Source of the DNA: Thermoanaerobaculia bacterium
GTDB taxonomy: Bacteria > Acidobacteriota > Thermoanaerobaculia > Gp7-AA8
Direction of reading: 5' to 3'
DNA length: 64,000 bases
Assembly (NCBI GenBank): GCA_035569395.1
Contig: DATMNC010000062.1
Coordinates: forward strand, 30,591-94,590
The position numbers and the translations under genes are program-made. Shown here piece after piece: positions 2,186 through 48,706 of this stretch (position 1 is the stretch's first letter; each line of letters opens with the position of its first letter). The notes beneath the pieces were generated by a model, which made no database searches, was not told the DNA's origin, and worked only from the letters and a program-made list of their open reading frames with translations.

Positions 2186-3555
2186 GCCTGCTCGCACGCT
2201 ATCGCTCGCTGCTGGAAGCTACCAGTGGTCTGTTCGCGCAACAGAGAACAGCTCGCCGCTCGGTGGAGTTCTCTCTGGCTATGCCGGCTTCCGTGGGCCG
2301 GCACACCATCACCAATGCCTTGTCGGTTCTGGGCCGCACCCAGGTGGACTGGAGTGGCGCGTACAAGTTCTTCAGCCGCTCACGCTGGAACCAGGCTGGT
2401 CGGTTTCGGCCTGTCTTCGAACATTACCTCCAGATGTTCCCCTCAGGCCCGATCGCCATCGCCGTGGACGACACCAAGGCGCATAAGGTAGGAAAGAAGA
2501 TCCGTTCTGCCTTCTGGCAGCGCGATCCGCTCTCGCCTCCCTTCCATGCCAATCTGATCTGGGCTCAGCGCTTTCTCCACTTCTCGCTGATCTTTCCGCT
2601 CCATCGAAACGGCCTGGTTCCGGCTCGCTCGCTTCCGGTTCGCTTTGAGGATGCTCCGGCCCTCAAAAAGCCAGGCATCCGAGGCTCGCTCCAGCAGTGG
2701 GAGGCGTATCGACAGCAGGTCAAACAGACCAATCTTTCGACCCAAGCGCGCACCACGGCCGAGGAAATCCGTAAGCACCTCGATCAGCTTGGTCAAGCCC
2801 ATCGCTCACTGCTGCTACCCGTGGACGGAAGCTTCTGCAATCGGCGCTTCTTTCGTGAACCGCTCGATCGCACCTACATCCTGGCCCGTGCTCGCAAGGA
2901 TGCCCGTCTTTGCTTTCCCGCCCCCGCCGGATCGCGACGCCGCTATGACGCGAACCTATTTACTCCCGAGGCTGTCCGCAAGGACGACTCCATTCCCTGG
3001 CACAAGGCCACGGTCTTTTTTGGCGGAAAGCGTCGTAAGGTCCGATTCAAGGTCGTCAACAAAGTTCTGTGGCGGCGAGGCTCGGGGCTCCGAACCCTTC
3101 GACTGATCGTCCTGGCACCAACTCCCTACCGGCTCTCCCCAAATGCTTCGATCAACTACCGCGATCCGGCCTACCTGCTCACCGACGAGTTGGCCTCTTC
3201 GCTGACCTCACTTCTCCAGAGCTACTTCGACCGTTGGCAGATCGAAGTCAATCATCGTGAAATCAAGCAGCACTTCGGCGCTGGCCAAGCCCAAGTTCGG
3301 GCCCTTTTATCTGTGCCGCGGGTTCCCGCCTTTGTGGTCTCCTGCTACAGCCTTCTCCATCTGGCCGGGCTTCTCGAGTTCGGCTCCTCACGAATCGACC
3401 GATATTCGCCTCTGCCTATATGGAGGCGAGCTTCGACGCGCCCTTCCATCGCCGATCTGCTCCGTCTGCTACGAACAGATCTGAACGAAACGCGAGATTC
3501 AACTTCCGGACTTCAAATCCCTGCGGCCAATCTCGTTCTCTCTCCCGCTGCCTGA
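2182..3555 (+). CDS. DDE transposase, IS4-family type (DDE_Tnp_1-like)
   Basis: 457 aa; C-terminal Y-x2-R-x3-E-x6-K signature (YFDRWQIEVNHREIKQ) typical of IS4-family transposases; sits inside terminal inverted repeats. Confidence 0.7.
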   Translation: MSLLARYRSLLEATSGLFAQQRTARRSVEFSLAMPASVGRHTITNALSVLGRTQVDWSGAYKFFSRSRWNQAGRFRPVFEHYLQMFPSGPIAIAVDDTKAHKVGKKIRSAFWQRDPLSPPFHANLIWAQRFLHFSLIFPLHRNGLVPARSLPVRFEDAPALKKPGIRGSLQQWEAYRQQVKQTNLSTQARTTAEEIRKHLDQLGQAHRSLLLPVDGSFCNRRFFREPLDRTYILARARKDARLCFPAPAGSRRRYDANLFTPEAVRKDDSIPWHKATVFFGGKRRKVRFKVVNKVLWRRGSGLRTLRLIVLAPTPYRLSPNASINYRDPAYLLTDELASSLTSLLQSYFDRWQIEVNHREIKQHFGAGQAQVRALLSVPRVPAFVVSCYSLLHLAGLLEFGSSRIDRYSPLPIWRRASTRPSIADLLRLLRTDLNETRDSTSGLQIPAANLVLSPAA

Positions 3556-3577: not shown

Positions 3578-3745
3578 GCCCCCGTCTTCAGACGGGGGAA
3601 CCGCGATCCCCTTCCCATTTCGCGAGCCCGCTTGAGCGGGCGAAAGAGAGCCGTCCGCGCGATTTCTGTCGCCCGCTGAAGCAGGCTCCCAACGTTGGGG
3701 ACCCCATTTTTCCCCCGCCTGAAGGCGGGGGCTACGATCTCACGC
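3578..3745. repeat. cluster of short GC-rich stem-loops (REP-like) directly abutting the IS right end
   Basis: gcccccgtc-ttca-gacggggg (3578-3598), gcccgc-ttga-gcgggc, cccaacgttggg palindrome, cccccgcc-tgaa-ggcggggg (3712-3731); 8-bp stems with 4-nt loops. Confidence 0.5.
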
Positions 3746-3779
3746 CGGCTTCGCCGGCCAAGGGACGGAACCGTTTCCG

Positions 3780-4373
3780 TCAGGTTCGATTGAAGAGCAT
3801 AAACAGAACGAAGACCACGATCATGATGGCAATCCACAGCAGAAAGACGCGAATCGGCCGCAGCGAAGGTTTGGCCGAGGATGGTGCCGCGGCCGCGAGA
3901 CGGCGAAAGCCTTCCCACGACTCGTCGTCCGCGAAGAACTCCCGGGGAAGAATGCGAATGCTGCTGGCCGACTGGTAGATCGTGACCAGGTTCGGAGTCA
4001 CCACGACCTTGTGCATCAGCGCCCACGGCAGATCGGCCCGGCCGTGCGCCGACTCCATGCGGACCCCCTGCTCGTCGGCTTCCCCCGAGACCTGGTCCGC
4101 CAGGAGCCGATCGGTGGCGAACGCCCGGCTTACGGTGATCCTCGGCATGATCAACAACATCACCCCGAACAATCCCAGAAACAACGGCGCCCCCCAGGAG
4201 ACAGGAACCGCAATGTGGGCGGAGGAAAGGGCGATGACTGACGCCAGGATCATTCCCCAGGCGACCGTCCGGATCGATCGGCCGGTGACACCGATCGCGC
4301 GACGGTAGAGCTCCGGCGTGAGTGTCCCTTCGAAACGGATCATCCGTGCATTCTGCACGAATCCGCTCCCCAC
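3780..4373 (-). CDS. hypothetical membrane protein (two TM segments, bacterial PH/YcxB-like architecture)
   Basis: 197-aa ORF with TM stretches ILASVIALSSAHIAV and VFLLWIAIMIVVFVLFMLF; no confident family assignment. Confidence 0.4.
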   Translation of the reverse strand: MGSGFVQNARMIRFEGTLTPELYRRAIGVTGRSIRTVAWGMILASVIALSSAHIAVPVSWGAPLFLGLFGVMLLIMPRITVSRAFATDRLLADQVSGEADEQGVRMESAHGRADLPWALMHKVVVTPNLVTIYQSASSIRILPREFFADDESWEGFRRLAAAAPSSAKPSLRPIRVFLLWIAIMIVVFVLFMLFNRT

Positions 4374-4446
4374 GAGGGCACGGTTGGTGACGGAAGCGCG
4401 AAGAAGCCCTCTCCTCCGTCACCGGAACCACTTCCCTCGGAGGCGG

Positions 4447-4553
4447 AACCAAAATTCAATCCGTCAGAACTAAAATTCAATCCGTCAGAACCAAAAATCA
4501 ATCCGTCATTGCCAAAAATCAATCCGTCATTGCCAAAATTCAATCCGTCAGAA
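4447..4553. repeat. tandem repeat, 5 copies of a ~21-bp unit (yAAAAwTCAATCCGTCAgaac/ttgc)
   Basis: Direct reading: taaaattcaatccgtcagaac / caaaaatcaatccgtcattgc x2 / caaaattcaatccgtcagaac; AT-rich relative to the surrounding sequence. Confidence 0.8.
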
Positions 4554-4583
4554 CAATATATTATTCTGTCACAGCGAATTTCG

Positions 4584-4726
4584 TTTCCGGCGGAGCGCCC
4601 GGCCGCTCCACGGGAAACGAAATTCAATCCTGCAGAATGATTTTTGTTTCCGAAGGAGCGCCGGCCCGTTCCGGCAGAAACAAAATTCGTTCCGACGGAA
4701 TGATTTTTCGCTCCTTCAGAATGATA
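4584..4726. repeat. two direct ~63-bp repeats plus partial third (gtttccg[g/a]..gagcgcc..ggc...gaaac.aaattc.ttcc..c.gaatgatttt)
   Basis: 4584-4644 and 4646-4708 align with few mismatches; partial third copy follows. Confidence 0.6.
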
Positions 4727-5018
4727 TAATGTTCTGTTGTTGCCAAAATCATTTAGTCGGCAACCGACACCAATATTCGTCACCGACCTCGGGATAGACG
4801 ATGTCCCCGGAGACCCCTGAGAAGATTCGAAAGAACCTCCCGCTTTTCGGGATCAGAAAGGGCTCGAAGTCGCCAGGATGCGGCGGTCATCTCCCGAGTA
4901 TGCAGGGACTTACGTCGTGTTGCAGTTATGCACGACCCCCGCCGGCGAAGCCGGCGTGAGGCCTCGACCGCCCAAAACCGGCTGCCCTCCCGAGCCACGC
5001 GGCACTCATCTGCGGATA

Positions 5019-11002: not shown

Positions 11003-11433
11003 GTCGTAATTGGTGAGAACACAACAGGAAGCGTAAGTATTCGCTGAATCAATGAGTTAGTCCACAGGATGTAGACGGCCGTTCAAATGGTTCTCCGCCA
11101 TTATTCCGCCAGTTCTACGCAGGTTATCCGCAGGGTTTTCGACAGTCTTTCGAGGGCAAATCCGCAGAAAATCAACGTCTTTTCCACATGTTTTGCACAT
11201 GATTTTCGTGCAGATTTCACTGGTTCTTTTTCCGCAGGATTTACGATGTGATTCCGAAGGAAATAGCAGACCCGGCTGGAAAAAACGTTGGCCTGGGGGT
11301 TGAGGTGGAGGATTGGCTGCGGAAAAGGGGCTGCGGATCGCCGCAGACCCCGGTCTTTCGTCCTCCGAAATGCTCCGGCGCAGCCATGCACAACGGTTGT
11401 GACACGTGGAACACTGCGGGTTCTGGGCTTCGC

Positions 11434-11571
11434 GGGTTGTCGGTTCTCGGTTATCGGTTGTCGGTGATCAATTGTCGGGCTCGGTGCGACTGACCGGCGT
11501 AAATTGGATGCAATTAATCGATCCGACCGACAACACGCGAAGCGCAATCAACGGACAACCGACAACGCGGC
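11434..11571. repeat. intergenic hairpin element, family A (GGTTGTC/GGTTATC heptamer arms; conserved end CCGACAACGCGGCGAAaCCGC)
   Basis: Left arm gggttgtcggttctcggttatcggttgtcggtgatcaattgtcggg; right arm ccgaccgacaacacgcg...caaccgacaacgcgg is its approximate reverse complement. Confidence 0.75.
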
Positions 11572-11581
11572 GAAACCGCAG

Positions 11582-14499: not shown

Positions 14500-16022
14500 T
14501 CTCCCGACCCAGAACCGCGAACGTCGTTTTCGCCGTGATCTTCGCGGCCTTCGCCTTCCTGCACCTCCACCGCATGGCCTCGATCTCGCCGACGTGGGAT
14601 GAGGGGACGGACATCGAGATCATCCACTGCCTGGCGTCGACGCACGATCCATTTGCCTGCCCCGACGACATCTCGCAGACGCGCCTCCCCTTCTACATTC
14701 ACGCCGCCGTCCTGGCGATCACGCCACGGATGGAGGCGCAGTACGCCGTCAGCTTCGTCGCCAGCGCTCTGACGCTGCTCCTGCTGTACGCCTTCGCGCG
14801 GCGTGAGTTCGGCGTGGCCGTGGCGACGATGACGGCCGCACTGTATGTCACCTCGCCCCAGCTCCTGGCGTCGGGACGGATGCTGCTGACGCACGCGAAC
14901 ATGCTCTTCACGCTGTTCACGACGGTCTCGTTTGTCGCGTTTTATTACGTGGTCTCGCGGTCTCGCGGTTTCGAGGTCGCGCGGTCCGCGATTTCCAAAC
15001 CGCGTGACCCCGCCACAACCCCGCTGCTCATCAGCGCCGTCGCGTTCGGATTGGCGACGTCGTGCTCGATCGTAGGCGTCTTCAACGGCCTCTTCATCGC
15101 CGTTTTCTATGCGGTGACGATCGGCCGCGAGCGGCGGATGTTGTGGCGCGACCTCCTCTTTCTGCCGGTGGCCGTGGCCACGTTTTTCGCGACATCGGTC
15201 ATCTACCTGAAGCCGAAGCTGCTCGTGGCGCTGATCCGCGCCTGTACGTTGCCAAAACCCTATCCGTTCTGGAACTACCTCGGGCTCGGATCGCCGTACG
15301 CGCCCTGGTACTTCTCGCTGGTCATCTTCGCGATCAAAATCGGGCCGTGGTGGCTGGCGCTGGCGGCGATCTGCTGGGCAATCTCACGGCGCCCCGCTCC
15401 ACGTACGACGCAGCGTGCCTTTCTCGCCGCAATCCCCATCAGCCTGGCCATCAACTTCGCGCTGAAGGGATTGGTCTTCCATTACGACGCGCCGCATCAC
15501 CAGGTGCAGTTCTATCCGCTGGTCTACCTCGTGATCGCCGCCGTTCTCCTCGGATACGAATTCCGGCGCCGCGTCTCCGCGCCGCTCGTGGCCGTCATCG
15601 CTGTCTGCTTCGCCCTGCAGCTCTACGACGTCGTCCGCTTCTTTCCGAACTATCTCTTCTACGGCTCGCAATACGGCGACCGGTTCATCGGCGAGTTCTA
15701 CGGACCGGCGGTCATGCACGCGCAGGACCGCGGGCCAGTGAATGCCTACATCGACCGGCTGCTGGCGCGCGACCCGAACGTGAAGATCCTGGTCGCCGAC
15801 AACAATGCGCTCGAACGGCCGGAACCGAATTTCGTCCTGTTCACGAAGCGGGATCCTTCGGTTCGCTATCAGTACGCGTTCGTCGATCGGTTGTACGCGG
15901 TGCATCTACAACTGCCGGAGAGGGATGCGTACAACGCGTATCTGGCGGCGAACTACGTGGATGACTACACGTACGACTTTCCGCCGGGGGTTTGGATGTA
16001 TCGGGTTCTGCGGCTCCGGTGA
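14495..16022 (+). CDS. GT-C fold membrane glycosyltransferase (ArnT/PMT, GT39/GT83-like)
   Basis: About 500 aa polytopic protein with N-terminal TM bundle and periplasmic C-terminal domain; GTG start overlapping the UbiA stop. Confidence 0.65.
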
Positions 16023-17126: not shown

Positions 17127-17143
17127 GGGGGGGAAGTGTATAT

Positions 17144-17312
17144 GCGGTTGCGCGGTCTCGGGGTTGCGCGGTCTCGGGGTTGCCCGGTCTCGGGGTTGCC
17201 CGGTTGCGCGGGGTTGTCGGTTATCAGTTGTCGGTTGCTGAGTTGCTGGGTTACGTGGTCGGGCCCGGCAGCCCGCCGCGAGACCGCGCAACCCCGCGAC
17301 CGCGAGACCGCA
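17144..17312. repeat. intergenic hairpin element, family B (GCGGTCTCG / GGGGTTGCG sub-repeats), in divergent promoter region
   Basis: Left arm is five or more tandem ggttgcgcggtctcgg units; right arm cgcgagaccgcgcaaccccgcgaccgcgagaccgc is the complement. Confidence 0.75.
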
Positions 17313-17360
17313 CTGGAATTGCTGTTCCCGTTCGGTGTTAGGCTGCTGGATTAACTGCAC

Positions 17361-19060: not shown

Positions 19061-19144
19061 GGGTTTCTGGGTTGCTGGGTTGCAGAGTTGCTAGGGATTG
19101 GAAGAAACCCAGCAACTCAGCAACCCAGCAACCCAGCAACCGCG
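19061..19144. repeat. intergenic hairpin element, family C (GGGTTGCT sub-repeats)
   Basis: gggtttctgggttgctgggttgcagagttgctaggg...gaaacccagcaactcagcaacccagcaacccagcaacc. Confidence 0.75.
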
Positions 19145-20389
19145 TTACGACTGCACTGGACCCACGAGCACGGTCGGAACCATCGACCCCGCCTCGATCG
19201 CGGTGACACCGGTCTCGACGATCATGAGGCCGTTGGCCTGCACCATCGACGTCGATACCCCGGAGCCTTGCGAAATCATCGGCTGCGAGACGAGCTCGCC
19301 ATCCCGCGCCATGACGCGGGCGCGCATGTAGTTGCGGCGGTCGCCGCGCGATTTCAGCGGCGCCAATACACGCGTCTGCACGATCGGCGGCAGGAGGTTC
19401 GTCGTCTGTCCCATCGCTTTCCGGATCGCCGGCGCGATGAAAAGGAGGAACGAGACCAGACACGAAACCGGATTGCCCGGCAGCCCGAAGTAGAGCCGGC
19501 CGCGGATCCGCGAGAGGACCACCGGTTTGCCGGGCTTCATCGCTACCTGCCAGAACCTCGTCTCCGCTCCCAATGTATCGAGCGCCTCTTTGACGAAATC
19601 GTAAGCGCCGACCGAGACACCGCCGGAGGAGATGATGTAGTCGGACTGGAGCCCTGATTCGATCGCCGCGATGGTGGCCTCGGGGGTATCGGGCACGATG
19701 CCGACCATCCTCGGAACCGCCCCCGCTTCACGGATGAGCGCCGCGAGCGAGTAGGAGTTCGAGTTGACGACCTTGCCGTACGCCATCTCGTCGCCGACGT
19801 CGATGATCTCGTCTCCGGTGGAAAGGATGGCCACGCTCGGTCGCCGTCCGACGCGGACGACCGGCTTCTGAACACCGGCCAGCACACCGACCTCGGCAGC
19901 ATGAATCGGAGTCCCATCCGCAAGCACGATGTCGCCGGCGTGCATGTCTTCGCCGCGCCTGCGGATGTTGGTTCCGCGGCTCAAGGACTCGTTGACTGTC
20001 ACGATCTCCGAGCCGGCGTCGGTGATCTCGACGTGCGCGACGGTATCCGCGCCGTCCGGCATCAGCGCGCCGGTCATGATGCGAATCGCCGTCCCCGCCT
20101 CAACCCGTTTCGTCGCCACCGTCCCCGCGGGGAGGTTCTCGACGACACGCAACGACACAGGAGGATTGGCGATGTCGTCCGCCCGTACGGCATAGCCATC
20201 CATCGCCGTGTTGTCGCCGCGCGGCACATCGAAACGCGCACGCACGTCCTCGCGCAGCACGCGCCCGAGAGCGTCGGTGAAGACGACCTGCTCGGTACCG
20301 AGCAGTTGCACCTCCGCCAGCACGCGCTCCTGAGCCTCTTCGACAGGGATCATCCGCTCGCCCGGGCGGGAGGGTTGGAAGGTAGGCAT
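19145..20389 (-). CDS. moeA: molybdopterin molybdenum/tungsten transferase
   Basis: 414 aa with MoeA N-terminal, MoCF-biosynthesis and C-terminal domain pattern. Confidence 0.9.
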   Translation of the reverse strand: MPTFQPSRPGERMIPVEEAQERVLAEVQLLGTEQVVFTDALGRVLREDVRARFDVPRGDNTAMDGYAVRADDIANPPVSLRVVENLPAGTVATKRVEAGTAIRIMTGALMPDGADTVAHVEITDAGSEIVTVNESLSRGTNIRRRGEDMHAGDIVLADGTPIHAAEVGVLAGVQKPVVRVGRRPSVAILSTGDEIIDVGDEMAYGKVVNSNSYSLAALIREAGAVPRMVGIVPDTPEATIAAIESGLQSDYIISSGGVSVGAYDFVKEALDTLGAETRFWQVAMKPGKPVVLSRIRGRLYFGLPGNPVSCLVSFLLFIAPAIRKAMGQTTNLLPPIVQTRVLAPLKSRGDRRNYMRARVMARDGELVSQPMISQGSGVSTSMVQANGLMIVETGVTAIEAGSMVPTVLVGPVQS

Positions 20390-20418
20390 GAGGAGAGTTT
20401 AGCTGGAGTGGGGGTTAC

Positions 20419-20647
20419 ACGCGCGGAGGCGCGCCGGACAATCCAGCCCCGCGCTCGGCGCGGGGTTTGTGTATCGACCGGAATTGCGGCCGCGGAGGCA
20501 GCCGCTACAAAGTCGAACGATCGAGAGGATTCCGACGTATCCGGCGACGGTTTGTCGCGGCCGCCTCCGCGGCCGCAATTCCTGGCTCACGAACGTACCC
20601 CGCGCCGAGCGCGGGGCTGGATTGTCCGGGCGCGCCTCCGCGCGCGT
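20419..20647. repeat. MITE-like nested-palindrome element, copy 1 (outer ~47-bp inverted repeat, inner gaattgcggccgcggaggcagccgc inverted repeat)
   Basis: acgcgcggaggcgcgccggacaatccagccccgcgctcggcgcgggg...ccccgcgccgagcgcggggctggattgtccgggcgcgcctccgcgcgcgt; homologous copy at 42959-43200. Confidence 0.7.
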
Positions 20648-20712
20648 AACCGGCGGTGCTTCGCGGCGCCTTGGAACATTGACGACGCCGCGATAGCGGC
20701 ACAAAGAGGGTA

Positions 20713-20898
20713 GCCAGAGGTGCGAGCGCTTTTTGCGAGCACCTCTGGTCGTTGTGTGCGTTGAAATTGTGCCGCGTCAGCGGCACTGGATGAGTGAGAC
20801 GAATGACGATCGCGACGACTTCCGGTGCCGCTGACGCGGCACGAAATCCATAACGTCCGCTTCCAGGGGTGCTCGCAAAAAGCGCTCGCACCCCTGGC
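20713..20898. repeat. second nested-palindrome element (ccagaggtgcgagcgctttttgcgagcacctctgg hairpins at both ends, inner gccgcgtcagcggcac inverted repeat)
   Basis: Arms 20713-20750 and 20863-20898 are reverse complements and each is itself a hairpin. Confidence 0.65.
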
Positions 20899-20974
20899 TA
20901 TCGTCTTGTTGCCGCTATCGCGGCAAGACTCGCCGCTTCGCGTCGCCATCAATGAGGTGCGGCCGTATTGATGC

Positions 20975-21202
20975 TCAGCCGCCCGCGATGGCCACGACGA
21001 TCTCGACTTCGTCGCCGTTCTTCAGCATGATGCTTTTTTCGCCATGTAACACGAGCTCGCCGTTGACGGCGAAGTTGAACAACTCGTCGCGGTCCTCAGC
21101 AAGATCGAGGCGGGCGATGATGTCGCCGAGGGAGGTTGCGTCCATCGTCATGATGGCACCTCGACCATTCTGTAGCGGCTCAGGCAAGCGGACGGTGACC
21201 AT
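20975..21202 (-). CDS. MoaD/ThiS-family sulfur-carrier protein
   Basis: 75 aa ending ...EIVVAIAGG (C-terminal Gly-Gly); beta-grasp length. Confidence 0.7.
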   Translation of the reverse strand: MVTVRLPEPLQNGRGAIMTMDATSLGDIIARLDLAEDRDELFNFAVNGELVLHGEKSIMLKNGDEVEIVVAIAGG

Positions 21203-23606: not shown

Positions 23607-24617
23607 TCAAATGTCCAGAAGGACGAGGCCGTGCTCGAAGCGGTGCTCTCCTTCACGCGGAATGGCCGCATCATTGCGGCAGATCAGGACGTTACGCAGC
23701 TCGACCGGCGCGGCGATCTCCACGCCGTGCGCGACGACGCAGGAATCGAGGACGACGCCTTTCGCGATCCAGCAATCGTCCCAGACAACGCTGCCGTCCA
23801 ATCTCCCCTCGATGACGCTGCGCGCGCCGGCGATGCTGCGCGTCATCGTACCGGTCACGACGGCCGTGTCATCGAACAGCGAGTCGCCGGCGACGTGCGT
23901 GCCGCGCGCGGGCGCGAGACGGCCAAGCACGGTGAGGTCTAGCAGCGTGCGTGACGCGGCCACGTAGCGTTGCGGCGTTCCGATGTCGAACCAGAGACTG
24001 TCGTCGACAACGCCGGCAATCGTTTCACGGCCACTGTCGATGAGCGGCTGATAGACCTCGTCGACGATGCCGGAGAAGTCTTTGTCCGGAAGGTAGTCGA
24101 AGATGCGGTTCGAGATCAGGTGTGTGCCGGAGAACATCAGCGCCTCGCCGATTCCTCTGCCGAAGCCGTTGACGCGGCCATCTTCGAAGTAAACCGGCGT
24201 GAAGCGATCACCCGGTGGTGGATGTCGCAGCGTCAATACCGCAAGTGCGTCGCTCCGCGCTGCAAGCAAGGCGTCGTATGACGGGAACTGAATCGTGTCA
24301 CCGTTGACAAGGAAAAACTCGGCGTCCCGCTCCAGAAGACTGCGCACCTTTCGTACACCGCCACCGGTCCCGAGAATCTCCGGCTCGTACGAAAACTCGA
24401 ACCGCGCGTCCGCAAACCGGTCCCGAAGAAATCGCTCGATCGGCTCGAGAAGATGGTGGAGGTTGACGATGAAATCGCGGATACCGAATGCGAGCAACGA
24501 TTCAATCGCCCAGGCCACGAGTGGCTGTCCGCACAACGGCACGAGCGGCTTCGGCAGCGTGTACGTGACCGGCCGGAGACGCGTGCCGTAGCCGGCGGCG
24601 AGGATCATGGCCTTCAT
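23607..24617 (-). CDS. sugar-phosphate nucleotidyltransferase with C-terminal left-handed beta-helix
   Basis: MKAMILAAGYGTRLRPVTYTLPKPLVPL is the NTP_transferase G-x-G-T-R-L motif. Confidence 0.8.
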   Translation of the reverse strand: MKAMILAAGYGTRLRPVTYTLPKPLVPLCGQPLVAWAIESLLAFGIRDFIVNLHHLLEPIERFLRDRFADARFEFSYEPEILGTGGGVRKVRSLLERDAEFFLVNGDTIQFPSYDALLAARSDALAVLTLRHPPPGDRFTPVYFEDGRVNGFGRGIGEALMFSGTHLISNRIFDYLPDKDFSGIVDEVYQPLIDSGRETIAGVVDDSLWFDIGTPQRYVAASRTLLDLTVLGRLAPARGTHVAGDSLFDDTAVVTGTMTRSIAGARSVIEGRLDGSVVWDDCWIAKGVVLDSCVVAHGVEIAAPVELRNVLICRNDAAIPREGEHRFEHGLVLLDI

Positions 24618-24619
24618 TG

Positions 24620-24709
24620 CGGTTGCGGGGTCCCGAGGTTGCGCGGTCTCGCGGTTGTGTAGGGCGAAGAAACTGCGAGACCGCGTAACCGCGAGACCCC
24701 GCGACCGCG
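24620..24709. repeat. intergenic hairpin element, family B
   Basis: gcggttgcggggtcccgaggttgcgcggtctcgcggttgtg...ctgcgagaccgcgtaaccgcgagaccccgcgaccgcgc. Confidence 0.75.
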
Positions 24710-24711
24710 CA

Positions 24712-25269
24712 TCACAGTTGCTCCGGCGGAAAGATCATGTTCTCGCCCAGATCGGGCCGTGTCCGTCTCGCCAATCGATAGAGGTCCGCGTAGGTCTGCC
24801 GGATGGCCTGCTCCATCGTCATCCCCAGCTCGGCGGCGATGGTGCGGATGACGTCGATGGGGCCTTCGATCTCGAAGTAGTCGCCGATGGGGGTGCGGTC
24901 GAGGACGACTTCGACCTCTTTGATGCGCCAGACCTCGCGGAACTTCTGGTAGCGGAAGACCGGCTTGTATCCGAGGGCATCGAAGAGCTGGATGGCCAGC
25001 TCGAAACTCTCGACGCCGGTCTGCACTTCCTCGCGCGACTTCACCCCTCCCTCGATCGACATCGGCCCTTTGTAGGTCGCGATCGAGTACTTGCCGAACT
25101 TGCGCACGCGCAGCAGCGAGCCTTTGGTCCGCAGCTCGCCGCGGCGGTCGAGGACGATGTTGTCCTCGAAGGTCTCGGGATAGAGCCGCTGCCCGCCGAT
25201 GTCATGCAGCTTCCGCACGAGATCGGCGCGGTCTTTGAGGGCGAATTTGACTTCGATTTCCTGAGGCAT
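24712..25269 (-). CDS. CYTH-domain protein (CyaB/thiamine-triphosphatase-like)
   Basis: EIEVKFAL...start with ExExK motif typical of CYTH; start taken at MPQEIEVKF. Confidence 0.75.
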   Translation of the reverse strand: MPQEIEVKFALKDRADLVRKLHDIGGQRLYPETFEDNIVLDRRGELRTKGSLLRVRKFGKYSIATYKGPMSIEGGVKSREEVQTGVESFELAIQLFDALGYKPVFRYQKFREVWRIKEVEVVLDRTPIGDYFEIEGPIDVIRTIAAELGMTMEQAIRQTYADLYRLARRTRPDLGENMIFPPEQL

Positions 25270-25273
25270 GGCG

Positions 25274-25362
25274 TGGGTTGCTCGGTTGCTGGGTTGCTTG
25301 GTTGCTCGGTGCCAGTGATTTGACTCTACCCAGCAACGCAGCAACCGAGAAACCCTGCAACC
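25274..25362. repeat. intergenic hairpin element, family C
   Basis: gggttgctcggttgctgggttgcttggttgctcgg...cccagcaacgcagcaaccgagaaaccctgcaacc. Confidence 0.75.
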
Positions 25363-26535
25363 TCACTCCCGCAGCACCTCCACTCCCGGCAGCGTTTCCC
25401 CCGAGATGAACTCCAGCGATGCGCCGCCGCCGGTGGAGATATGGCTGATGCGGCTGGCGTACCCGGACGCTTTCACGGCTTCGACCGATTCGCCACCGCC
25501 GACGACCGTGGTCCCGCCAGCCTCGGCCACCGATCGCGCCACGGCCATCGTTCCCTTCGCGAAGGCTTCGTTCTCGAACACGCCCATCGGCCCGTTCCAG
25601 AAAATCGTGCGCGCTCCTTTCAGGATCGCGTCGTACGCCGCGATCGTCTTCGGTCCGATGTCGAAGGCCTTCTGACCGGCGGTCAGACCGCTCGATACAT
25701 CGACCGTCTCGATTGTCTTCGGCTGTTCCAGATCGTCGGCGACGATGAGATCGACCGGCAGCGTCACGTTCGTGATCCTCTTCGCCACTTCGAGCGAATC
25801 GTTGTCGACGAGCGAGCCGCCCATGGCGACGCCTCGGGCGGCCAGAAACGTGTTCGCCATCCCGCCGCCGACGAGGACCGTGTCCGCGAGCTTGACGAGC
25901 GCTTCGAGCGGTTCGATCTTGCCGGCGATCTTGGCGCCGCCGAGGAGGGCGACGAAGGGGCGGTCGGAAACGTTGGTGATCTTCTGCAGGAACTCGATTT
26001 CTTTCGCCAGCAGGAGGCCGCCGGCGGTGTGCGCCTTGTCGAACAGGCGCGCAAGCGCATCGATCGAGGCGTGGGCTCTGTGGCAGGCGCCAAAGGCATC
26101 GTTGACGTAGTAGCCAGCGAGCTTGCGCAACTGCTCGGCAAAGGCGTGGTCATTCGCCTCTTCACCGGCGTGGAAACGAAGGTTCTCGAGAAGCAGAACG
26201 TGTCCCGGCGCTAGGGCTGACGCCTTCGCTTCGGCTTCGCTGCCGATGCAGTCATCCGACCATTGCACGCCGGCTTCGAGCAGCTCGGCCAGTCTTGCGC
26301 GGACCGGTTCCAGCGAGTACTTCGCCTTCCGCTCCCCCTTCGGTCTGCCGAGGTGGCTGGCGATCACGACGGCGGCTCCGGCAGCGCGGAGACGGCGAAG
26401 AGTCGGCAACGTCTCCTCGATGCGGGTGGCGTCGGTGATCCTTGCACCGTCGAGCGGCACGTTGTAATCGACACGGTAAAACACACGCGCGCCGGCCGGG
26501 AGCGAAAGGTCGTCGAGGGTACGGATCGTGATCAT
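25363..26535 (-). CDS. pgk: phosphoglycerate kinase
   Basis: 390 aa, canonical PGK N-terminus and full-length pattern. Confidence 0.95.
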   Translation of the reverse strand: MITIRTLDDLSLPAGARVFYRVDYNVPLDGARITDATRIEETLPTLRRLRAAGAAVVIASHLGRPKGERKAKYSLEPVRARLAELLEAGVQWSDDCIGSEAEAKASALAPGHVLLLENLRFHAGEEANDHAFAEQLRKLAGYYVNDAFGACHRAHASIDALARLFDKAHTAGGLLLAKEIEFLQKITNVSDRPFVALLGGAKIAGKIEPLEALVKLADTVLVGGGMANTFLAARGVAMGGSLVDNDSLEVAKRITNVTLPVDLIVADDLEQPKTIETVDVSSGLTAGQKAFDIGPKTIAAYDAILKGARTIFWNGPMGVFENEAFAKGTMAVARSVAEAGGTTVVGGGESVEAVKASGYASRISHISTGGGASLEFISGETLPGVEVLRE

Positions 26536-26546
26536 TTTTATGAGAA

Positions 26547-26625
26547 GTTATCGGTTGTCGGTTATCGGTTCTCGGTTGCGGCCACAACCCACAACTGACA
26601 ACTGACAACCGATAACCGACAACCA
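26547..26625. repeat. intergenic hairpin element, family A
   Basis: gttatcggttgtcggttatcggttctcggttgcgg / ccacaacccacaactgacaactgacaaccgataaccgacaacc. Confidence 0.75.
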
Positions 26626-30736: not shown

Positions 30737-31202
30737 CATTCTGTTGATGTTTGCTCTTGCCTGCACCCAGCGGACGCCAACGCCGAGTCCGGCCACGACG
30801 ATGGCTGCGGCGAGCGCTCAGCGCATCGTCTTTCCCGACCACTTCGTCGTTGCGGTCGAAGTGGCTTCGGACGATGAAACCCGGTCGCAGGGCCTGATGT
30901 ACCGCGATCACCTGGCTGACGATCGGGGGATGATCTTTCTCTTTGTGCAGCCTGGCGACTATCCGTTCTGGATGAAGAACACGCTCATCCCGCTCGACAT
31001 GATCTGGATGGACAGCCAGCACCGCATCGTCCATATCGCCCATGACGTCCAGCCCTGCAAAGCCGACCCCTGCCCGAACTATCCGCCGAAGGCGCAGGCC
31101 TCATCCGTCCTGGAACTGGCCGCCGGCGTGGCGGCCAAGCATCACCTTGCCAACGGCAACGTGCTGCGGTTCGAGGGGCTGGAGAACGTAGTGGTGCGGT
31201 AG
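30726..31202 (+). CDS. DUF192 domain protein (secreted/lipoprotein-like)
   Basis: N-terminal signal MKASILLMFALAC; DUF192-like core. Confidence 0.65.
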   Translation: MKASILLMFALACTQRTPTPSPATTMAAASAQRIVFPDHFVVAVEVASDDETRSQGLMYRDHLADDRGMIFLFVQPGDYPFWMKNTLIPLDMIWMDSQHRIVHIAHDVQPCKADPCPNYPPKAQASSVLELAAGVAAKHHLANGNVLRFEGLENVVVR

Positions 31203-31372
31203 GGGTTGCGGGGTCTCGCGGTCTCGGGGTTGCGCGGTCTCGAAGTTGCGGGGAGCTCTCTGAAATTGGAGTCTCGCGGTCTCGAAGTTGCGCGGTCTCG
31301 CGGTGTTTCGGGCTCACGCGGCGTGATGACGTCGCATCCCGCGAGACCCCGCAACCGCGAGACCCCGCAACC
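31202..31372. repeat. intergenic hairpin element, family B (long left arm, short right arm)
   Basis: ggggttgcggggtctcgcggtctcggggttgcgcggtctcgaagttgcgggg...cgcgagaccccgcaaccgcgagaccccgcaacc. Confidence 0.75.
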
Positions 31373-31469
31373 ACGCCTGCAAACGAATTCAACACTCTCG
31401 CCGTCCAATGCGTAACAACCGCACGGGAGGCATTGAATTATTCAATCCAGGACTTACGTTCGGATCGTC

Positions 31470-32387: not shown

Positions 32388-32401
32388 ACGGCTGCTGCGC
32401 C

Positions 32402-32716
32402 GCGTTGTCGGTTATCGGTCCAATTTGATGCGGTATCGATCCAATTTGGAGCGGTATCGGTCAAATTTGATGCGGCATCGATCCAATCTGGACCGGTATC
32501 GATCCAATTTGGAGCGGTATCGATCCGATTTGACGCGGTATCGATCCAATTTGGAGCGTTCATCGATCCGATTTGATGCGGTATCGATCCGATTTGATGC
32601 GATATCGATCCGTTTGGAGCGGTATCAGTCCAATTTGATGCGATTTCGGTCCCGAGGCTCGCCGCGGTTCGGCAAAATCTACCGATAACCGACAACCGAC
32701 AACGCGGCGCAGCCGC
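32402..32716. repeat. family A hairpin element whose core carries a 21-bp minisatellite (about 10 copies of GGTATCGATCCAATTTGRWGC, 32441-32650)
   Basis: Flanks gcgttgtcggttatcgg and ccgataaccgacaaccgacaacgcgg are inverted. Interior is a tandem array of ggtatcgatccaatttggagc / ggtatcgatccgatttgatgc units. ORFs 32282-32695(-) and 32350-32688(+) are repeat translations. Confidence 0.85.
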
Positions 32717-32718
32717 AA

Positions 32719-37343: not shown

Positions 37344-37753
37344 CCCGCGCTCCGGACGTACTGAGTCCCACCGAGGACAGTACGCCTAAACCCTTTGCCG
37401 GAACCATCCGTAGAAACTACTGAAACCAGTGATGTTGGAAGCTGGCAGAGCTGGCAGGCCAATTGAAGTAGGAGTGGTCAACTCGGAGAAACCGAGCAAG
37501 CAGTGGAAAGGACGCCCCCATGTGGATATACGACGGTGATCAATGGACCGAAGAGGGCGTGAGCGAGACCGACAAACAAAGGCCGGAAACGATCATGCCG
37601 CGGCACGGAGAAGAGTTCTACCCCGAGCTCCAGGTCGTCGAAGTCGAGATCGTACCGGTTCCGCGGACAAACTACGTACCCCACTTTCCGCAGCCGTAAA
37701 TCGAAATCGATCCCCTACCGATGAGCCGCGCCGAAAGGCGCGGCCTTTTTTTG

Positions 37754-38269
37754 TCAAAGCGTCTCGATCCACGCCTCGATCGCGGCGATGGCGCGATCGT
37801 TTCGGAAGTTGTACCAGGCACGCTCGATGGTGCGGTCGGCGGCAAGCGCGCGGCGGAAGGTTTCGGCATCGCTGCTGCGCGCGAGCTCGTCGCGCGCGGG
37901 CGACGCATCGAGCGACTCGATGAATGCACGCCGATCCTCGGCCTCCGATTTTCCGGTACGCGAAGGCACACGACGGTACCGCGGCGCGGCCAGTTCCGGA
38001 TGCGCGCTCAACTCCGCCACACGAAGATCGACGATTTCGCCATCCTCGGTGTCGAGAAAGTGCGCGAGCTGGCCCGAATCGTCGAGGTAGGCAACGGTCA
38101 ACCCCTCGGTGTCGACATCGAAGGAACGTTCTCTCGCGGGCGGCGCCGCTGCCGCGGCCGGCGTCGTGCTCCACCCCGCGTTGCGCGTCAGAAACTCCTT
38201 CTCGCGCTCCTCCCGCCGCCGCTGCCAGCCGCGGAAGACGAGGCGGATCTTCTGCATAAGGGTAGGCAT
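37754..38269 (-). CDS. hypothetical cytoplasmic protein
   Basis: Start MPTLMQ chosen so as not to overlap divergent murQ; no confident domain. Confidence 0.4.
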   Translation of the reverse strand: MPTLMQKIRLVFRGWQRRREEREKEFLTRNAGWSTTPAAAAAPPARERSFDVDTEGLTVAYLDDSGQLAHFLDTEDGEIVDLRVAELSAHPELAAPRYRRVPSRTGKSEAEDRRAFIESLDASPARDELARSSDAETFRRALAADRTIERAWYNFRNDRAIAAIEAWIETL

Positions 38270-39170: not shown

Positions 39171-40291
39171 CTGACCGGAAAATCTTCGGCCGTGCCTTTG
39201 TCGGAGGCGCGCTGCGCGAGGGGACGCTCATCGCCATCGACGACGGACGGATCGCCGACGTCCGCGATGCCGCCCATCCGCCACCGGGCAGCGACGTGGC
39301 CGAGGGAGTCATCGTTCCGGGATTCATCGACATCCACGTTCACGGCGGCAACGGCGCCGACTTCATGGACGCCACGTCGGACGCGGTCTCGCGCGTGACG
39401 CGCTTTCACGCCACCGAGGGGACGACGGCGCTGGCTGCGACGACGCTCTCCGCGTCGCGGCAGCATCTGCACGAGGCGGTGACCACGATCGCGCGGGCGT
39501 CACGCGGCGTCGGTGCGGCAATCTGCGGCATCCATCTCGAAGGACCGTACATCAGTGTCGCCCGTGCGGGGGCGCAGGACGCCGGCTCGATTCGGCCGGC
39601 CGAAATCGGCGAGCTGGCCGCGCTCCTCGCCGAGGGGCCGCACCTTCGCTGGATGATGACCGTCGCGCCCGAGATCGAAGGAGTGCGCGCCCTGATCGAG
39701 CATTTTCGCGATCGAATCCTCTTCTCCATCGGCCACACCGCGGCGGACTACGCCGATTGCGTCGCCGCGCTGCGATGGGGAGCGTCGCATTTCACGCACC
39801 TCTTCAACGCCATGACCGGACTCGAGCATCGTAAGCCGGGCGCGGTCGGAGCGGCCCTGACGTCGGTCGACGCCACCGCGGAGCTGATCGCCGACGGCAT
39901 CCACGTCCATCCCGCCGTTCTCCGGATCGCCGCGCTGGCCATGCCGCACCGCATCGCGCTCGTCACCGACGCCGTCCGCGCCTGCGGGATGCCTGACGGA
40001 ACGTACAAGCTCTACGAGCACGAAATCACCGTCGCCGACGGTGCGGCACGCCTCGCTGATGGCACCCTCGCCGGCAGCGTGCTGACGATGCGCTGCGCCG
40101 TCCAGAACATGGTCGAGCTGGCCGGACTGCCGCTGGAGCTCGTCCTTCCGCTGGCCACCGAAGTCCCCGCCCGCATCCTCGGCATCGGCGACCGGAAGGG
40201 AAAGCTCGCACCGGGATACGACGCCGACATCGTCGTCCTCACCGACCGTTTCGAGATTGCGGCAACGTACTTGCGAGGGGAGAGGGTTTAG
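39167..40291 (+). CDS. nagA: N-acetylglucosamine-6-phosphate deacetylase
   Basis: GFIDIHVHGGNGADFMD metal-binding motif; amidohydrolase fold length. Confidence 0.9.
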   Translation: MTDRKIFGRAFVGGALREGTLIAIDDGRIADVRDAAHPPPGSDVAEGVIVPGFIDIHVHGGNGADFMDATSDAVSRVTRFHATEGTTALAATTLSASRQHLHEAVTTIARASRGVGAAICGIHLEGPYISVARAGAQDAGSIRPAEIGELAALLAEGPHLRWMMTVAPEIEGVRALIEHFRDRILFSIGHTAADYADCVAALRWGASHFTHLFNAMTGLEHRKPGAVGAALTSVDATAELIADGIHVHPAVLRIAALAMPHRIALVTDAVRACGMPDGTYKLYEHEITVADGAARLADGTLAGSVLTMRCAVQNMVELAGLPLELVLPLATEVPARILGIGDRKGKLAPGYDADIVVLTDRFEIAATYLRGERV

Positions 40292-40360
40292 CGGTCGCGA
40301 GGTCGCGAGGTCTCGCGGTAAAACCCCGAGACCGCGCACCCCCGAAACCGCGAGACTGCG
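40291..40360. repeat. intergenic hairpin element, family B-like (GCGAGGTC/GGTCTCGCGG)
   Basis: gcggtcgcgaggtcgcgaggtctcgcgg...ccccgagaccgcgcacccccgaaaccgcgagactgcg. Confidence 0.7.
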
Positions 40361-40363
40361 AAT

Positions 40364-41065
40364 ATGAACTGGGAAACCCTTCCCAACCACGACATCCTCT
40401 CCGATCGCGCCGCCGAGATTCTCCTGGAAGCGATCCTCCGCAACCCGCGATCGGTTCTCGGACTGCCGACCGGACGAACACCAGTGAAGATGTACGAGCG
40501 CGCCGTCGCCGCATGCGGGCGCGCCTATCACTGCTTCCGCGATGTGGTGACGTTCAATCTCGACGAGTACGTCGGCATCGAACGGATACATCCCGGCAGC
40601 TACTTCACGTTCATGAAGCGGCACCTTTTCGATTACATCGACATCGATCCCGCGAACGCGCACATTCCGAATGGCGCGGCGGCCGATGTCGATGCGGAGT
40701 GCGCGCGGTACGAGCGCGACATCGCTGCTTCCGGCGGTCTCGATCTCACCTTCCTCGGCCTCGGCAGCAACGGCCACATCGCCTTCAACGAGCCCGGAAC
40801 ATCCTTCCACTCGCGCACGCGGTCCGTCACGCTCACCGAGTCGACGCGCGCCGCCAACGCCTCGCTCTTTCCCGACGGGAACGTCCCGACCCACGCCATC
40901 ACCATGGGGATTGCCACGATCCTGGAGTCGAAATCGATCGTGCTGCTCGCCAGCGGGGAGAGGAAGCGAGACGCCATCGAACGGCTGCGCAGCGGCGAGA
41001 TCAGCGAGGAGTTCCCGGCCAGCGCGCTATGGAAGCATCCCGATGTGACGGTGCTGACCGCATAG
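40364..41065 (+). CDS. nagB: glucosamine-6-phosphate deaminase
   Basis: LGLPTGRTP...FNLDEYVG...LGLGSNGHIAFNEPG. Confidence 0.9.
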   Translation: MNWETLPNHDILSDRAAEILLEAILRNPRSVLGLPTGRTPVKMYERAVAACGRAYHCFRDVVTFNLDEYVGIERIHPGSYFTFMKRHLFDYIDIDPANAHIPNGAAADVDAECARYERDIAASGGLDLTFLGLGSNGHIAFNEPGTSFHSRTRSVTLTESTRAANASLFPDGNVPTHAITMGIATILESKSIVLLASGERKRDAIERLRSGEISEEFPASALWKHPDVTVLTA

Positions 41066-42584: not shown

Positions 42585-42628
42585 GGGTTTGTTGCGGCGG
42601 GTTATCGGTTGTCAGTTGTCGGTTGCGA
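42585..42628. repeat. family A repeat, single arm
   Basis: ggggtttgttgcggcgggttatcggttgtcagttgtcggttgcg without an evident complementary arm. Confidence 0.55.
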
Positions 42629-42677
42629 ACAGAGTGGTTCACCGCAGTCATAATTGGACCGATTGGAAGGATCCTCG

Positions 42678-42938
42678 ATGAAATGCCGAGTTTGCGGAGG
42701 GACGCAGCAACCCACAAACACTGATCTCCCCTTCAAGACAGGAGAGCGGTCCATCGTGATCATTAAGTCTCTTCCGGTGATTCAGTGCCCGCAGTGCTAC
42801 GAGTACTCGATCGACGATCCGACGTTGCGGAGAGTGGAGGAGACCCTTGCCAGGGTCGATTCCGGCGCTGAGCTGGAGATCATCCCCTTTGCAGCTGAGT
42901 TCACAGCGCGGGCTTCTCTCGCAACCGAGGGGACTTGA
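42678..42938 (+). CDS. YgiT-type zinc-finger protein (MqsA N-terminal-like)
   Basis: MKCRVCGG...VIQCPQCYEY four-Cys zinc ribbon, about 85 aa; no partner toxin gene evident. Confidence 0.55.
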   Translation: MKCRVCGGTQQPTNTDLPFKTGERSIVIIKSLPVIQCPQCYEYSIDDPTLRRVEETLARVDSGAELEIIPFAAEFTARASLATEGT

Positions 42939-42958
42939 CGCCAGCCCTGGGCCGGATG

Positions 42959-43200
42959 CGCGCGAAGGCGCGCTCAACAATCCAGCCCCGCGCTCGGCGG
43001 AGCACGAGCGCGGGGTAAGAAGTGTCAGCAATTTGCCGGCCGCGGAGGCGGCCGGGACAACCGCCCGGTTCGCGCGAGAAGCGAGATCCTCACAGCCTGT
43101 GGCAGCCGCCTCCGCGGCCGCACCTCAACATCCCATCGATACCCCGCGCCCGCGCTACGCCGAGCGCGGGGCTGAATTGGAGTGCGCGCCTCAGCGCGCA
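42959..43200. repeat. MITE-like nested-palindrome element, copy 2 (homologous to 20419-20647)
   Basis: Shares caatccagccccgcgctcggcg, gccgcggaggcggcc and ccccgcgc.gagcgcggggctgaattg motifs in the same nested arrangement. Confidence 0.7.
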
Positions 43201-43282
43201 ACCGAAATCTTCCCGTCGCGCGCAGAAATTAAAGGTTAGTAGTACAGAGAACCGAGAACCGACAACCCGGCGAAGCCGCGCG

Positions 43283-46782: not shown

Positions 46783-46798
46783 GATTGCAGCTTCGCTG

Positions 46799-46936
46799 CG
46801 TTGTCGGCTATCGGTTATCGGTTGTCAGGGCGCGATACGACGATTTCTCACGTTCCCGATCGCCGACGGCACCATATCAAACGATCGAGACGCTGAGACG
46901 AACCGACAACCGATAACCGACAACCGACAACGCGGC
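46799..46936. repeat. intergenic hairpin element, family A (arms about 37 bp, 64-bp spacer) in divergent promoter region
   Basis: gcgttgtcggctatcggttatcggttgtcagggcgcg...cgaaccgacaaccgataaccgacaaccgacaacgcgg. Confidence 0.75.
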
Positions 46937-47007
46937 AAAGCCGCATTCCCTCGAACCCTGCTACACTTTCGGCACTAGCGTTCAGCACCGCGGGAGGGGG
47001 CGGACCC

Positions 47008-48704: not shown

Positions 48705-48706
48705 TT

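Follow-up and report, generated by a model that had tools for sequence, protein, structure and literature searches.

What occupies the spacer between moaD and moeA in the genome of a Thermoanaerobaculia bacterium, a member of the Acidobacteriota? The window studied here is a 64-kb stretch of contig DATMNC010000062.1 (GCA_035569395.1), and its positions serve as coordinates throughout. The moaD stop (20975) and the moeA start (20389) are separated by 585 nt, of which ~492 nt are taken up by two nested palindromes, namely a copy of a repeat that we call family 1 and an element of a second repeat, family 2; another family-1 copy lies further along the window. An earlier note on this DNA had called the first palindrome "MITE- or BIME-like" (miniature inverted-repeat transposable element; bacterial interspersed mosaic element) and the spacer completely filled with such elements, which holds for the greater part of the gap and not for all of it. 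We find that both palindromes are copies of dispersed non-coding repeat families of Thermoanaerobaculia. In our judgement it is highly probable that they are non-autonomous REPIN-like elements (inverted doublets of repetitive extragenic palindromic, or REP, sequences) of two separate repeat/Y1-transposase systems in this lineage. We regard them as mobile elements of the REP/REPIN type, not as genes or regulatory RNAs, because the same arms flank a Y1 gene in relatives.

The nested palindromes, the shared inverted repeats and the two homologous copies described in the earlier note were all recovered by inverted-repeat searches and alignment. Beyond that description, each family-1 arm proved to be a series of three separate hairpins: module A (consensus GCGCGC-GRAG-GCGCGC), module B (CCCCGCGC-TCG-GCGCGGGG, preceded by the invariant linker CAATCCAG) and, beyond a variable spacer of ~20-25 nt, module C (GCGGCCGC-GGAG-GCGGCCGC). 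The opposite arm mirrors this order (C', B', A'), and a single arm folded alone forms exactly three hairpins. The core of copy 1, from A to A', spans 20419-20645 and is extended by GGTTAC/GTAACC. Its outer inverted repeat pairs 20413-20466 with 20597-20651 (as 33 nt at 100% plus 23 nt at 96% identity, with a one-base offset), and its inner one pairs 20480-20511 with 20551-20582 (32 nt, 94%). The arms of copy 2 are 42953-43017 and 43140-43204 (65 nt, 85%). The 22-mer CAATCCAGCCCCGCGCTCGGCG has four occurrences in the window, one in each arm, where 0 are expected, and the inner sequence GCGGCCGCGGAGGCGGCCGC likewise has four, against 0.18 expected.

Alignment of copies 1 and 2 in both orientations showed that the three hairpin blocks are kept and the spacers are not. 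The two copies represent two subfamilies: subfamily I (~200-230 bp) has a short B hairpin, and subfamily II has a long one (CCCCGCGCTCG-GCGYAGCG-CGAGCGCGGGG), arms that can be told apart as left and right, and an additional outer hairpin, which in copy 2 reads CAGCGCGGGCTTC.C.CGCAAC. Both copies are real, although BLAST against ten copies makes copy 2 ~60 nt longer (~42902-43204) than the 42959-43200 previously given to it. Across copies, module C shows compensatory changes (C-G/T-A and G-C/C-G). Variant B hairpins of the form CCCCTGGC-NNN-GCCAGGGG were seen in place of CCCCGCGC-TCG-GCGCGGGG at two of the loci retrieved below (L022, 552-700; L096, 3590-3640 and 4005-4030), with pairing kept via double changes and the flanking linker kept; one of them lies in the arm upstream of the L096 Y1 gene.

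Directly beyond module A the information content of the family consensus drops to zero, save for a weak ggtc/gacc foot, and the family-1 element is therefore a discrete unit with sharp ends. The foot itself has a weak ggtc/cgtc consensus of ~0.4-0.9 bit per position. Because many copies start with CGTC directly before GCGCGC, CGTC-tagged REPs were considered as a description of the family and rejected: the tag is a weak one, and neither the A/T at the base of the stem nor the CCA tail fits. At the outer end of copy 2 (42902 onward) lie the last ~12 codons and the TGA stop of a 94-aa open reading frame (ORF; 42654-42938, + strand) that has CxxC...CPxC zinc-finger-like motifs and no Pfam match; copy 2 may supply the C-terminus and stop codon of this ORF.

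The second palindrome, formerly placed at 20713-20898, is equally real but extends further (20672-20924) and constitutes a separate family with its own partner gene. Its outer arms are 20687-20748 and 20863-20924 (62 nt, 90%) and its inner arms 20769-20790 and 20821-20842. The sequences of the two families are unrelated and the three-hairpin layout is common to both, family 2 having CCAGRGGTGC..GCACCYCTGG as hairpin B2 and GTGCCGC-GTCA-GCGGCAC as C2. The two B2 arms in the window differ by an A-T to G-C swap that keeps the local hairpin pairing and breaks the pairing between arms. Because of this swap and the module C exchanges of family 1, we conclude that the local small hairpins are what is maintained, not one long stem.

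Folding is far more stable than in shuffled controls: z is -15.6 when copy 1 is folded as DNA and -23 when the entire spacer is folded as RNA. The spacer is crossed by several ORFs of 100-130 aa, which the earlier note had judged spurious. That judgement is borne out, as Pfam gave no match for the four ORFs crossing the spacer, nor for two ORFs overlapping the left end of copy 2, and the gap is empty in the gene calls of the source record. A search of the whole window against Rfam 15, which includes the Moco riboswitch, returned a tRNA elsewhere as its sole match at gathering scores; at relaxed E-values the spacer gave only generic long-hairpin (miRNA-precursor) matches, far below the gathering scores. 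No promoter, terminator or terminator-like T run was found by scanning the spacer, and since it is without a promoter- or terminator-like site the elements are probably transcribed within the moaD-moeA message.

Copies of both families are dispersed through related genomes. Family 1 was scanned with the 21-mer AATYCAGCCCCGCGCTCGGCG in one genome per species, and the counts are lower bounds. The query matched at least 105 stretches; among the 105 listed, 100 come from 12 metagenome-assembled genomes (MAGs), ten of them labelled Thermoanaerobaculia, one Acidobacteriota only and one represented by a short contig binned as Gemmatimonadaceae, and the remaining five, from other taxa, are without the neighbouring modules. 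One MAG alone holds at least 37 family-1 loci with at least 72 arms. Over 738 kb of loci there are 198 family-1 arms, arranged as 70 full doublets and 58 single arms. Family 2 was met four times within the 105 listed family-1 loci, and a family-2 32-mer matched at least 119 metagenome stretches. The earlier description of the palindromes as dispersed, structured and non-coding is therefore upheld, and the copy count proposed as a check on it returned many copies. Within a genome the median best identity between copies is 84%, and dispersed pairs reach ~93% at most. One closer pair was noted at L089, where copies at 3265-3482 and 3600-3817 are 98% identical, share their orientation, lie 335 nt apart and have left flanks that do not differ; a local tandem duplication, not transposition, accounts for the pair.

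At some loci the arms enclose a gene. At L065 a plus/minus arm pair 680 nt apart encloses a 145-aa ORF matching Pfam Y1_Tnp (PF01797, E = 9e-20), and L096 holds a gene 71% identical to it. Three further Y1 relatives were examined with their flanks, one of them from MAG Chersky.31_28. In all five independent records (L065, L096, L106/107, L108/109 and L110) a ~145-aa Y1_Tnp gene lies exactly between C and C' of family-1 arms. Upstream of the gene the order is invariably A, CAATCCAG, B, spacer, C, ACAA, a conserved leader (CCGAGGTACGAT..GGGACTTCCGCATGGTTC) and ATG, with the start ~55-100 nt past C; downstream, the first base of C' falls within the stop codon, and spacer, B', CTGGATTG and A' follow. 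The five proteins are 70-84% identical, the genes outside the arms differ from record to record, and no tnpB appears in the gene lists of the five loci.

The Y1 gene appears to be rare: it was found in 2 of the 105 listed repeat loci, and a protein search recovered 56 relatives, each 90% protein cluster falling on about one contig. Several of these homologues are named "REP element-mobilizing transposase RayT" by JGI. Family 2 has a paralogue of its own, a 147-aa Y1 protein whose gene follows A2-B2-C2 and directly precedes C2' (L148 and L194, one sequence in two records). Moreover, in MAG La1_metabat2.109 the loop of module C reads GAAG in five of six dispersed arms and in the arm upstream of its Y1 gene; elsewhere the loop is GGAG in ~150 of ~165 arms. 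Gene and arms together form an arrangement like that of a REPtron, and on this ground the window copies are taken as its non-coding, REPIN-like counterparts.

The Y1 proteins are 145-150 aa long, with H54, H56, W91, Q92, Y111 and Q115 invariant, H118 and H119 near-invariant and a C-terminal tail conserved at F124 and E127. Judged by motif, not by tree, they carry the signature of TnpA-Y1 subclass 1.2. Searches of the PDB with a single sequence gave marginal matches only.

The insertion behaviour of family 1 was read from its flanks. A target-site duplication, expected if the elements were MITEs, was absent: across 67 elements, offsets of 0-8 and lengths of 2-8 nt gave no signal, the best combination reaching 15% against 6.5% for the null. 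Neighbours on both sides could be called with confidence for 49 elements, of which 17 lie between convergent, 28 between tandem and 4 between divergent genes (45 of 49 convergent or tandem), that is, mostly downstream of genes; a further three lie inside long ORFs by crude ORF calls. Those elements that are asymmetric enough to orient run with the neighbouring genes in eight cases and against them in seven, so that the orientation bias that would point to a strand-specific RNA function is absent. The 659 clustered flanking ORFs contain no recurring transposase, only paralogous families (response regulators, ABC ATPases, DUF4388, sigma factors). When 110 loci were searched by tblastn with ArgS, MoeA, MoaD, the aldehyde:ferredoxin oxidoreductase and the product of the ORF at 42654, all encoded beside the window copies, no flank proved orthologous; for this reason a copy at L004 that resembles copy 2 was ruled out as a copy at the same site.

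At the moaD-moeA site itself, turnover is evident. MoeA orthologues with flanks are 81-89% identical, and the moaD-moeA interval differs among them. The window carries families 2 and 1 there (585 nt), and in three relatives whose MoeA is 86-89% identical to that of the window the gap holds a SnoaL-type gene (L230), two tandem copies of another palindrome of ~190 bp (L231, 398 nt) or a different palindrome built on GCACAGACAAGAGTGTCTGTGC (L232, 168 nt); in L233 moaD is not a neighbour of moeA. The ~25 nt that lead up to the moeA start are conserved in the window and L232 alike and bracket the insertions. It is because the gap content differs in four close relatives that we speak of turnover, and the presence/absence polymorphism that the earlier note had proposed to look for is thereby found. 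A second orthologous site, with flanking genes 88% identical, carries three different palindromes in three species: one of 8-nt period in the window (11426-11581), family 1 in L036 and a third kind in L058. Elsewhere the window has a canonical intrinsic terminator downstream of a gene (37727-37755, GCCGCGCC-GAAA-GGCGCGGC plus T7), where the L027 orthologue has a family-1 element.

Some of the palindromes at these sites belong to further families. The one built on GCACAGACAAGAGTGTCTGTGC is a third family, present in the window at 63475-63581 as two inverted GCACAGACAAGAGTGTCTGTGC hairpins; besides filling the L232 gap it adjoins the upstream side of the family-2 Y1 gene (L148/L194). The L231 palindrome (2103-2500) is a fourth, with ends CCCTGTCATCCTGAG...CTCAGGATGACAGGG.

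Each element consists of two inverted arms of ~100 nt, each a fixed series of three small G+C-rich hairpins with spacers free to vary, and the window copies have the REPtron-like structure with ~50 nt in place of the Y1 gene. From the physical association of gene and arms we infer that the Y1 enzyme mobilises the elements, in the following way. The enzyme would recognise the hairpins on single-stranded DNA, probably together with the adjacent conserved linker or foot, and would cut and rejoin there by analogy with IS200/IS605 TnpA and E. coli TnpA-REP, such that doublets are excised and reinserted without a target-site duplication. Copies would then build up in tolerated places, mainly 3' of genes and in operon spacers such as moaD-moeA. 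Transcribed copies would form very stable hairpins; consequences for mRNA stability or termination, if there are any, would be side effects. A wider proposal is that Thermoanaerobaculia contain several coexisting repeat/enzyme pairs, in which a Y1/HUH enzyme of the poorly understood subclass 1.2 type mobilises composite three-hairpin REPINs and the families compete for the same intergenic sites; we see this as evenly poised between right and wrong.

Several observations weigh against REPIN-like elements served by a Y1 enzyme. No Y1 gene was found in the 64-kb window by tblastn with the Y1 protein, and the elements have no conserved GTAG foot. The protein motif is Y---Q--HH, not the Y---NP of a classical class-2 RAYT (REP-associated tyrosine transposase); a profile search of the PDB led to IS608, ISDra2 and other IS200-type TnpA proteins (1e-10 to 1e-14) and did not find E. 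coli TnpA-REP at E <= 0.01, and NCBIfam returned the IS200 model only, at 51.7 bits against a cut-off of 55. Copies within one genome are, as noted above, fairly diverged and so give no evidence of recent activity. Lastly, the near-invariant hairpin sequences could reflect host selection for protein binding, not recognition by a transposase.

In a rival account the palindromes are structural elements selected by the host (terminators without a U-tract, stabilisers of mRNA 3' ends or sites for nucleoid proteins) and the association with a Y1 gene is secondary. RNA- or chromosome-level roles of this kind have been proposed for E. coli BIMEs. The preference for positions downstream of genes agrees with such a role, as do the site where a hairpin with a T run in the window corresponds to a family-1 element in a relative, the presence of different palindrome families at the same intergenic sites in different species, and hairpins that are predicted to fold with extreme stability and stay almost invariant across species as the spacers drift. 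What it leaves unexplained are the sharp ends, the fixed order of the modules and the placing of a Y1 gene exactly between C and C' in two unrelated families; in addition, the moaD-moeA spacer lies within what appears to be an operon, a setting in which a terminator would do harm, and has no terminator-like T run. We hold this account to be improbable as the primary explanation, and a host-level role is compatible with mobile REPIN-like elements as a secondary effect. The association could also be incidental, an IS200-type Y1 gene having a preference for existing palindromes whose spread has a different cause. Specific short sequences and hairpin-rich DNA are indeed targets of IS200/IS605 elements, and the Y1 protein is closer in sequence to IS200 TnpA than to class-2 RAYTs. 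Against this stand junctions that are identical in five records despite the divergence of their proteins, the lack of separate insertion-sequence ends in those five records, the rarity of a gene that is not multi-copy relative to the repeats, the diverged paralogue in the same relation to family 2, and the match in C-loop variant between gene flank and dispersed copies of one genome. An incidental association accordingly seems very unlikely to us.

On the MITE half of the earlier label, the palindromes would have arisen from a DDE-type insertion sequence by internal deletion, and cut-and-paste transposition would act on the inverted repeats at their ends. The length of these repeats, a size of 200-300 bp, many dispersed copies and the lack of coding capacity are what one would expect of such derivatives, but in the strict sense the reading fails because no target-site duplication is detectable at any offset and because the partner is a Y1/HUH rather than a DDE enzyme. 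The Y1/HUH gene is the sole gene found between matching arms (five records, and one for family 2), and no recurring transposase-like ORF adjoins the copies, the multi-copy ORF clusters being response regulators, ABC ATPases and similar proteins. We find classical MITEs barely credible here, so that the BIME/REP half of the label is the part that stands. Finally, a strongly folded spacer directly upstream of moeA, crossed by ORFs of 100-130 aa, might be taken for a structured regulatory RNA of the molybdenum-cofactor genes (a Moco riboswitch or a small RNA) or for small protein genes. No Rfam family reaches its threshold there, however, and the relaxed matches are generic hairpins; the same elements lie beside unrelated genes in both orientations and are missing from this site in relatives; and the ORFs have neither a Pfam match nor a call in the source record. 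Known RNA families are thereby refuted, a regulatory RNA is ruled out by the Rfam result, the random orientation and the absence in relatives, and to this explanation as a whole we give practically no weight.

How do REPIN-like elements of this kind relate to systems already described? In E. coli and Pseudomonas fluorescens, REP, REPIN and BIME sequences occur together with RAYT (TnpA-REP) genes in REPtrons (PMC3116915, PMC3337134). The present families share with REPtrons the extragenic palindromic units in inverted doublets, the tens to hundreds of copies per genome, the lack of target-site duplications, the bias to the 3' side of genes, the Y1/HUH gene, apparently rare or single-copy, flanked by inverted units and the existence of several families in a genome, each with its own enzyme. 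They differ in that the unit is ~95-110 nt long with three hairpins and a linker, instead of one hairpin of 20-40 nt; no conserved GT[AG]G tetranucleotide stands 5' of the hairpin foot, where only the weak ggtc/cgtc consensus is seen; the enzyme is without the class-2 Y---NP and closer to IS200 TnpA; and the host belongs to the Acidobacteriota (class Thermoanaerobaculia), not the Proteobacteria. The system works like a REPtron/REPIN system, but departs from the classical definition in three respects, the GTAG foot, the single short hairpin and the class-2 enzyme.

TIRtrons consist of RAYT-like genes (TIRYTs) with long, partly self-complementary terminal inverted repeats (TIRs) and include an Acidobacteria group (Di Nocera et al. 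2013, PMC3733652). Certain of these TIRs are "double palindromic" and, organised as dimers, make up dispersed families of moderate abundance, and most TIRs share a GGGGWSAS motif (PMC3733652); most TIRYT proteins, which are assigned to subclass 2.1 in PMC6006769, carry C-terminal helix-turn-helix (HTH) domains. The likeness lies in a RAYT-like gene flanked by long inverted repeats that are not canonical REPs. Unlike TIRYTs, the proteins described here are ~145 aa long without an HTH domain, and the arms have three hairpins; the two systems are set apart by description, not by sequence.

In the classification of Y1 proteins, the motif Y---NP marks class 2, to which the true TnpA-REP proteins belong (Quentin et al. 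2018, PMC6006769). Subclass 1.2 is defined by DH[IV]H, WQ and Y---Q--HH, a length of ~148 aa, a conserved C-terminal tail and low copy number, and is found mostly in Cyanobacteria and Bacteroidetes with neither associated REPs nor ends of the insertion-sequence type (PMC6006769). Motifs, length, conserved tail and an apparently low copy number are all seen in the Y1 proteins of the present loci, but in contrast to subclass 1.2 as reported, the gene sits between the arms of a high-copy repeat. Class 3 comes from Acidobacteria and Planctomycetes, where "atypical secondary structures" flank the genes, with ~600 copies in Solibacter usitatus; its proteins have ~178 aa, the motifs NHVH / W[TA] / Y----Q and a CnGA foot (PMC6006769). 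Our Y1 proteins match none of these class-3 features.

With IS200/IS605 elements and their non-coding derivatives, the palindrome-associated transposable elements (PATEs), the system shares a Y1/HUH enzyme of ~150 aa, the lack of target-site duplication and, probably, hairpin ends that are recognised as single-stranded DNA. The ends of IS200/IS605 elements are not inverted copies of each other, and their tnpA is multi-copy and often accompanied by tnpB; here, the arms are mirror images, the Y1 gene is rare and the five loci have no tnpB. Correia, ERIC and Nezha, bacterial MITEs of strong secondary structure, create target-site duplications and depend on DDE transposases. The elements resemble them in size, terminal inverted repeats, intergenic location and probable co-transcription with neighbouring genes, but neither a target-site duplication nor a DDE transposase was found. 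We found no prior description of these elements in Thermoanaerobaculia or Acidobacteriota in the searchable literature.

Table 1. Repeat elements of the window, their hairpin modules and the genes bordering the moaD-moeA spacer.
Feature	Position	Strand	Basis or remark
Family-1 copy 1, subfamily I (short B hairpin)	20413-20651		Inverted repeats; family consensus; BLAST to >40 other copies covers 20420-20646
Copy 1 module A, hairpin (A)CGCGC-GGAG-GCGCGC	20419-20434	+	Mirror A' at 20630-20645
Copy 1 linker CAATCCAG + module B, hairpin CCCCGCGC-TCG-GCGCGGGG	20439-20465	+	Mirror at 20598-20624; 21-mer exact in at least 105 loci
Copy 1 module C, hairpin GCGGCCGC-GGAG-GC(A)GCCGC	20486-20505	+	Mirror C' at 20557-20576; Y1 gene sits between C and C' in relatives
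Family-1 copy 2, subfamily II (long B hairpin, asymmetric arms)	42902-43204		BLAST against ten other subfamily-II copies; ends approximate
Copy 2 modules	D (outer hairpin) 42902-42926; A 42958-42973; linker + B 42978-43015; C 43036-43055		
Copy 2 mirror modules	C' 43102-43121; B' + linker 43142-43179; A' 43184-43199		
Family-2 element	20672-20924		Inverted repeats; extension to ~20672; partner Y1 gene in L148 and L194
Family-2 modules	A2 20687-20700; B2 20714-20748; C2 20769-20786		A2 is GCCGC-GATA-GCGGC
Family-2 mirror modules	C2' 20825-20842; B2' 20863-20897; A2' 20911-20924		
moaD (ThiS family)	20975-21202	-	Pfam PF02597; upstream neighbour, stop at 20975
moeA	19145-20389	-	Pfam MoeA_N / MoCF_biosynth / MoeA_C; downstream neighbour, start at 20389; orthologues 81-97% identity
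8-nt-period palindromes	11426-11581; 14945-14992; 17140-17313; 19061-19149; 24602-24710; 25267-25370; 26544-26624		
8-nt-period palindromes (rest)	31195-31381; 40271-40364; 46783-46948; 48690-48783; 55962-56009; 58067-58117; 58957-59072		

The window contains further repeats of other kinds. The intergenic palindromes of 8-nt period are built from tandem units (GGTTGCGC/GGTCTCGG, GGTTGCTG or GGTTGTCG/GGTTATCG) with the reverse-complement units on the opposite arm; they recur about every 4-5 kb, frequently carry a GCGGC-loop-GCCGC hairpin as their cap, and in one case directly adjoin the stop codon of moeA. The halves of one such palindrome (42591-42626 and 43243-43280) flank the ORF at 42654-42938 together with family-1 copy 2, and at L106 repeats of GTTGTCGG and of CCGACAAC enclose the whole Y1 gene with its arms (about 2700-2760 and 3640-3720). 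The split palindrome and the layout of L106 suggest insertion of one kind of repeat into the middle of another. Tandem repeats of 21 nt form three arrays, each of 7-10 units and with different units, at 4428-4742, 32393-32652 and 49467-49676, one of them followed by an 8-nt-period half-palindrome (32681-32717). Between moaD and the aldehyde:ferredoxin oxidoreductase gene is a gene for a 133-aa TIR-domain protein (PF13676; 21207-21608, - strand). One relative has two such genes in tandem (L230, 1044-1899) and others have none.

For annotation, ~500 of the 585 nt between moaD and moeA, as well as ~300 nt downstream of the ORF ending at 42938, are repeats, and ORFs called across them should be dropped. 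The repeats also explain assembly breaks around such loci in these organisms.

To our knowledge, REP/REPIN-RAYT systems have been studied almost only in Proteobacteria. The loci described here show the REPIN-RAYT logic in an uncultivated class of Acidobacteriota, with arms of greater complexity and an enzyme bearing the signature of a Y1 subclass that had no previously reported DNA substrate or repeat association. If the wider proposal made above is correct, subclass 1.2 gains its first proposed substrate, and persistent replicators of the REPIN-RAYT type, here with a recognition architecture that is new and of greater complexity, extend to the Acidobacteriota. Two families, and probably more, that share an architecture, differ in sequence and each have a paralogous enzyme of their own would offer a natural test set for how Y1 enzymes read hairpins. 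Because one family takes the place of another at shared intergenic positions, the lineage may also be useful for the study of competition between replicators within a genome.

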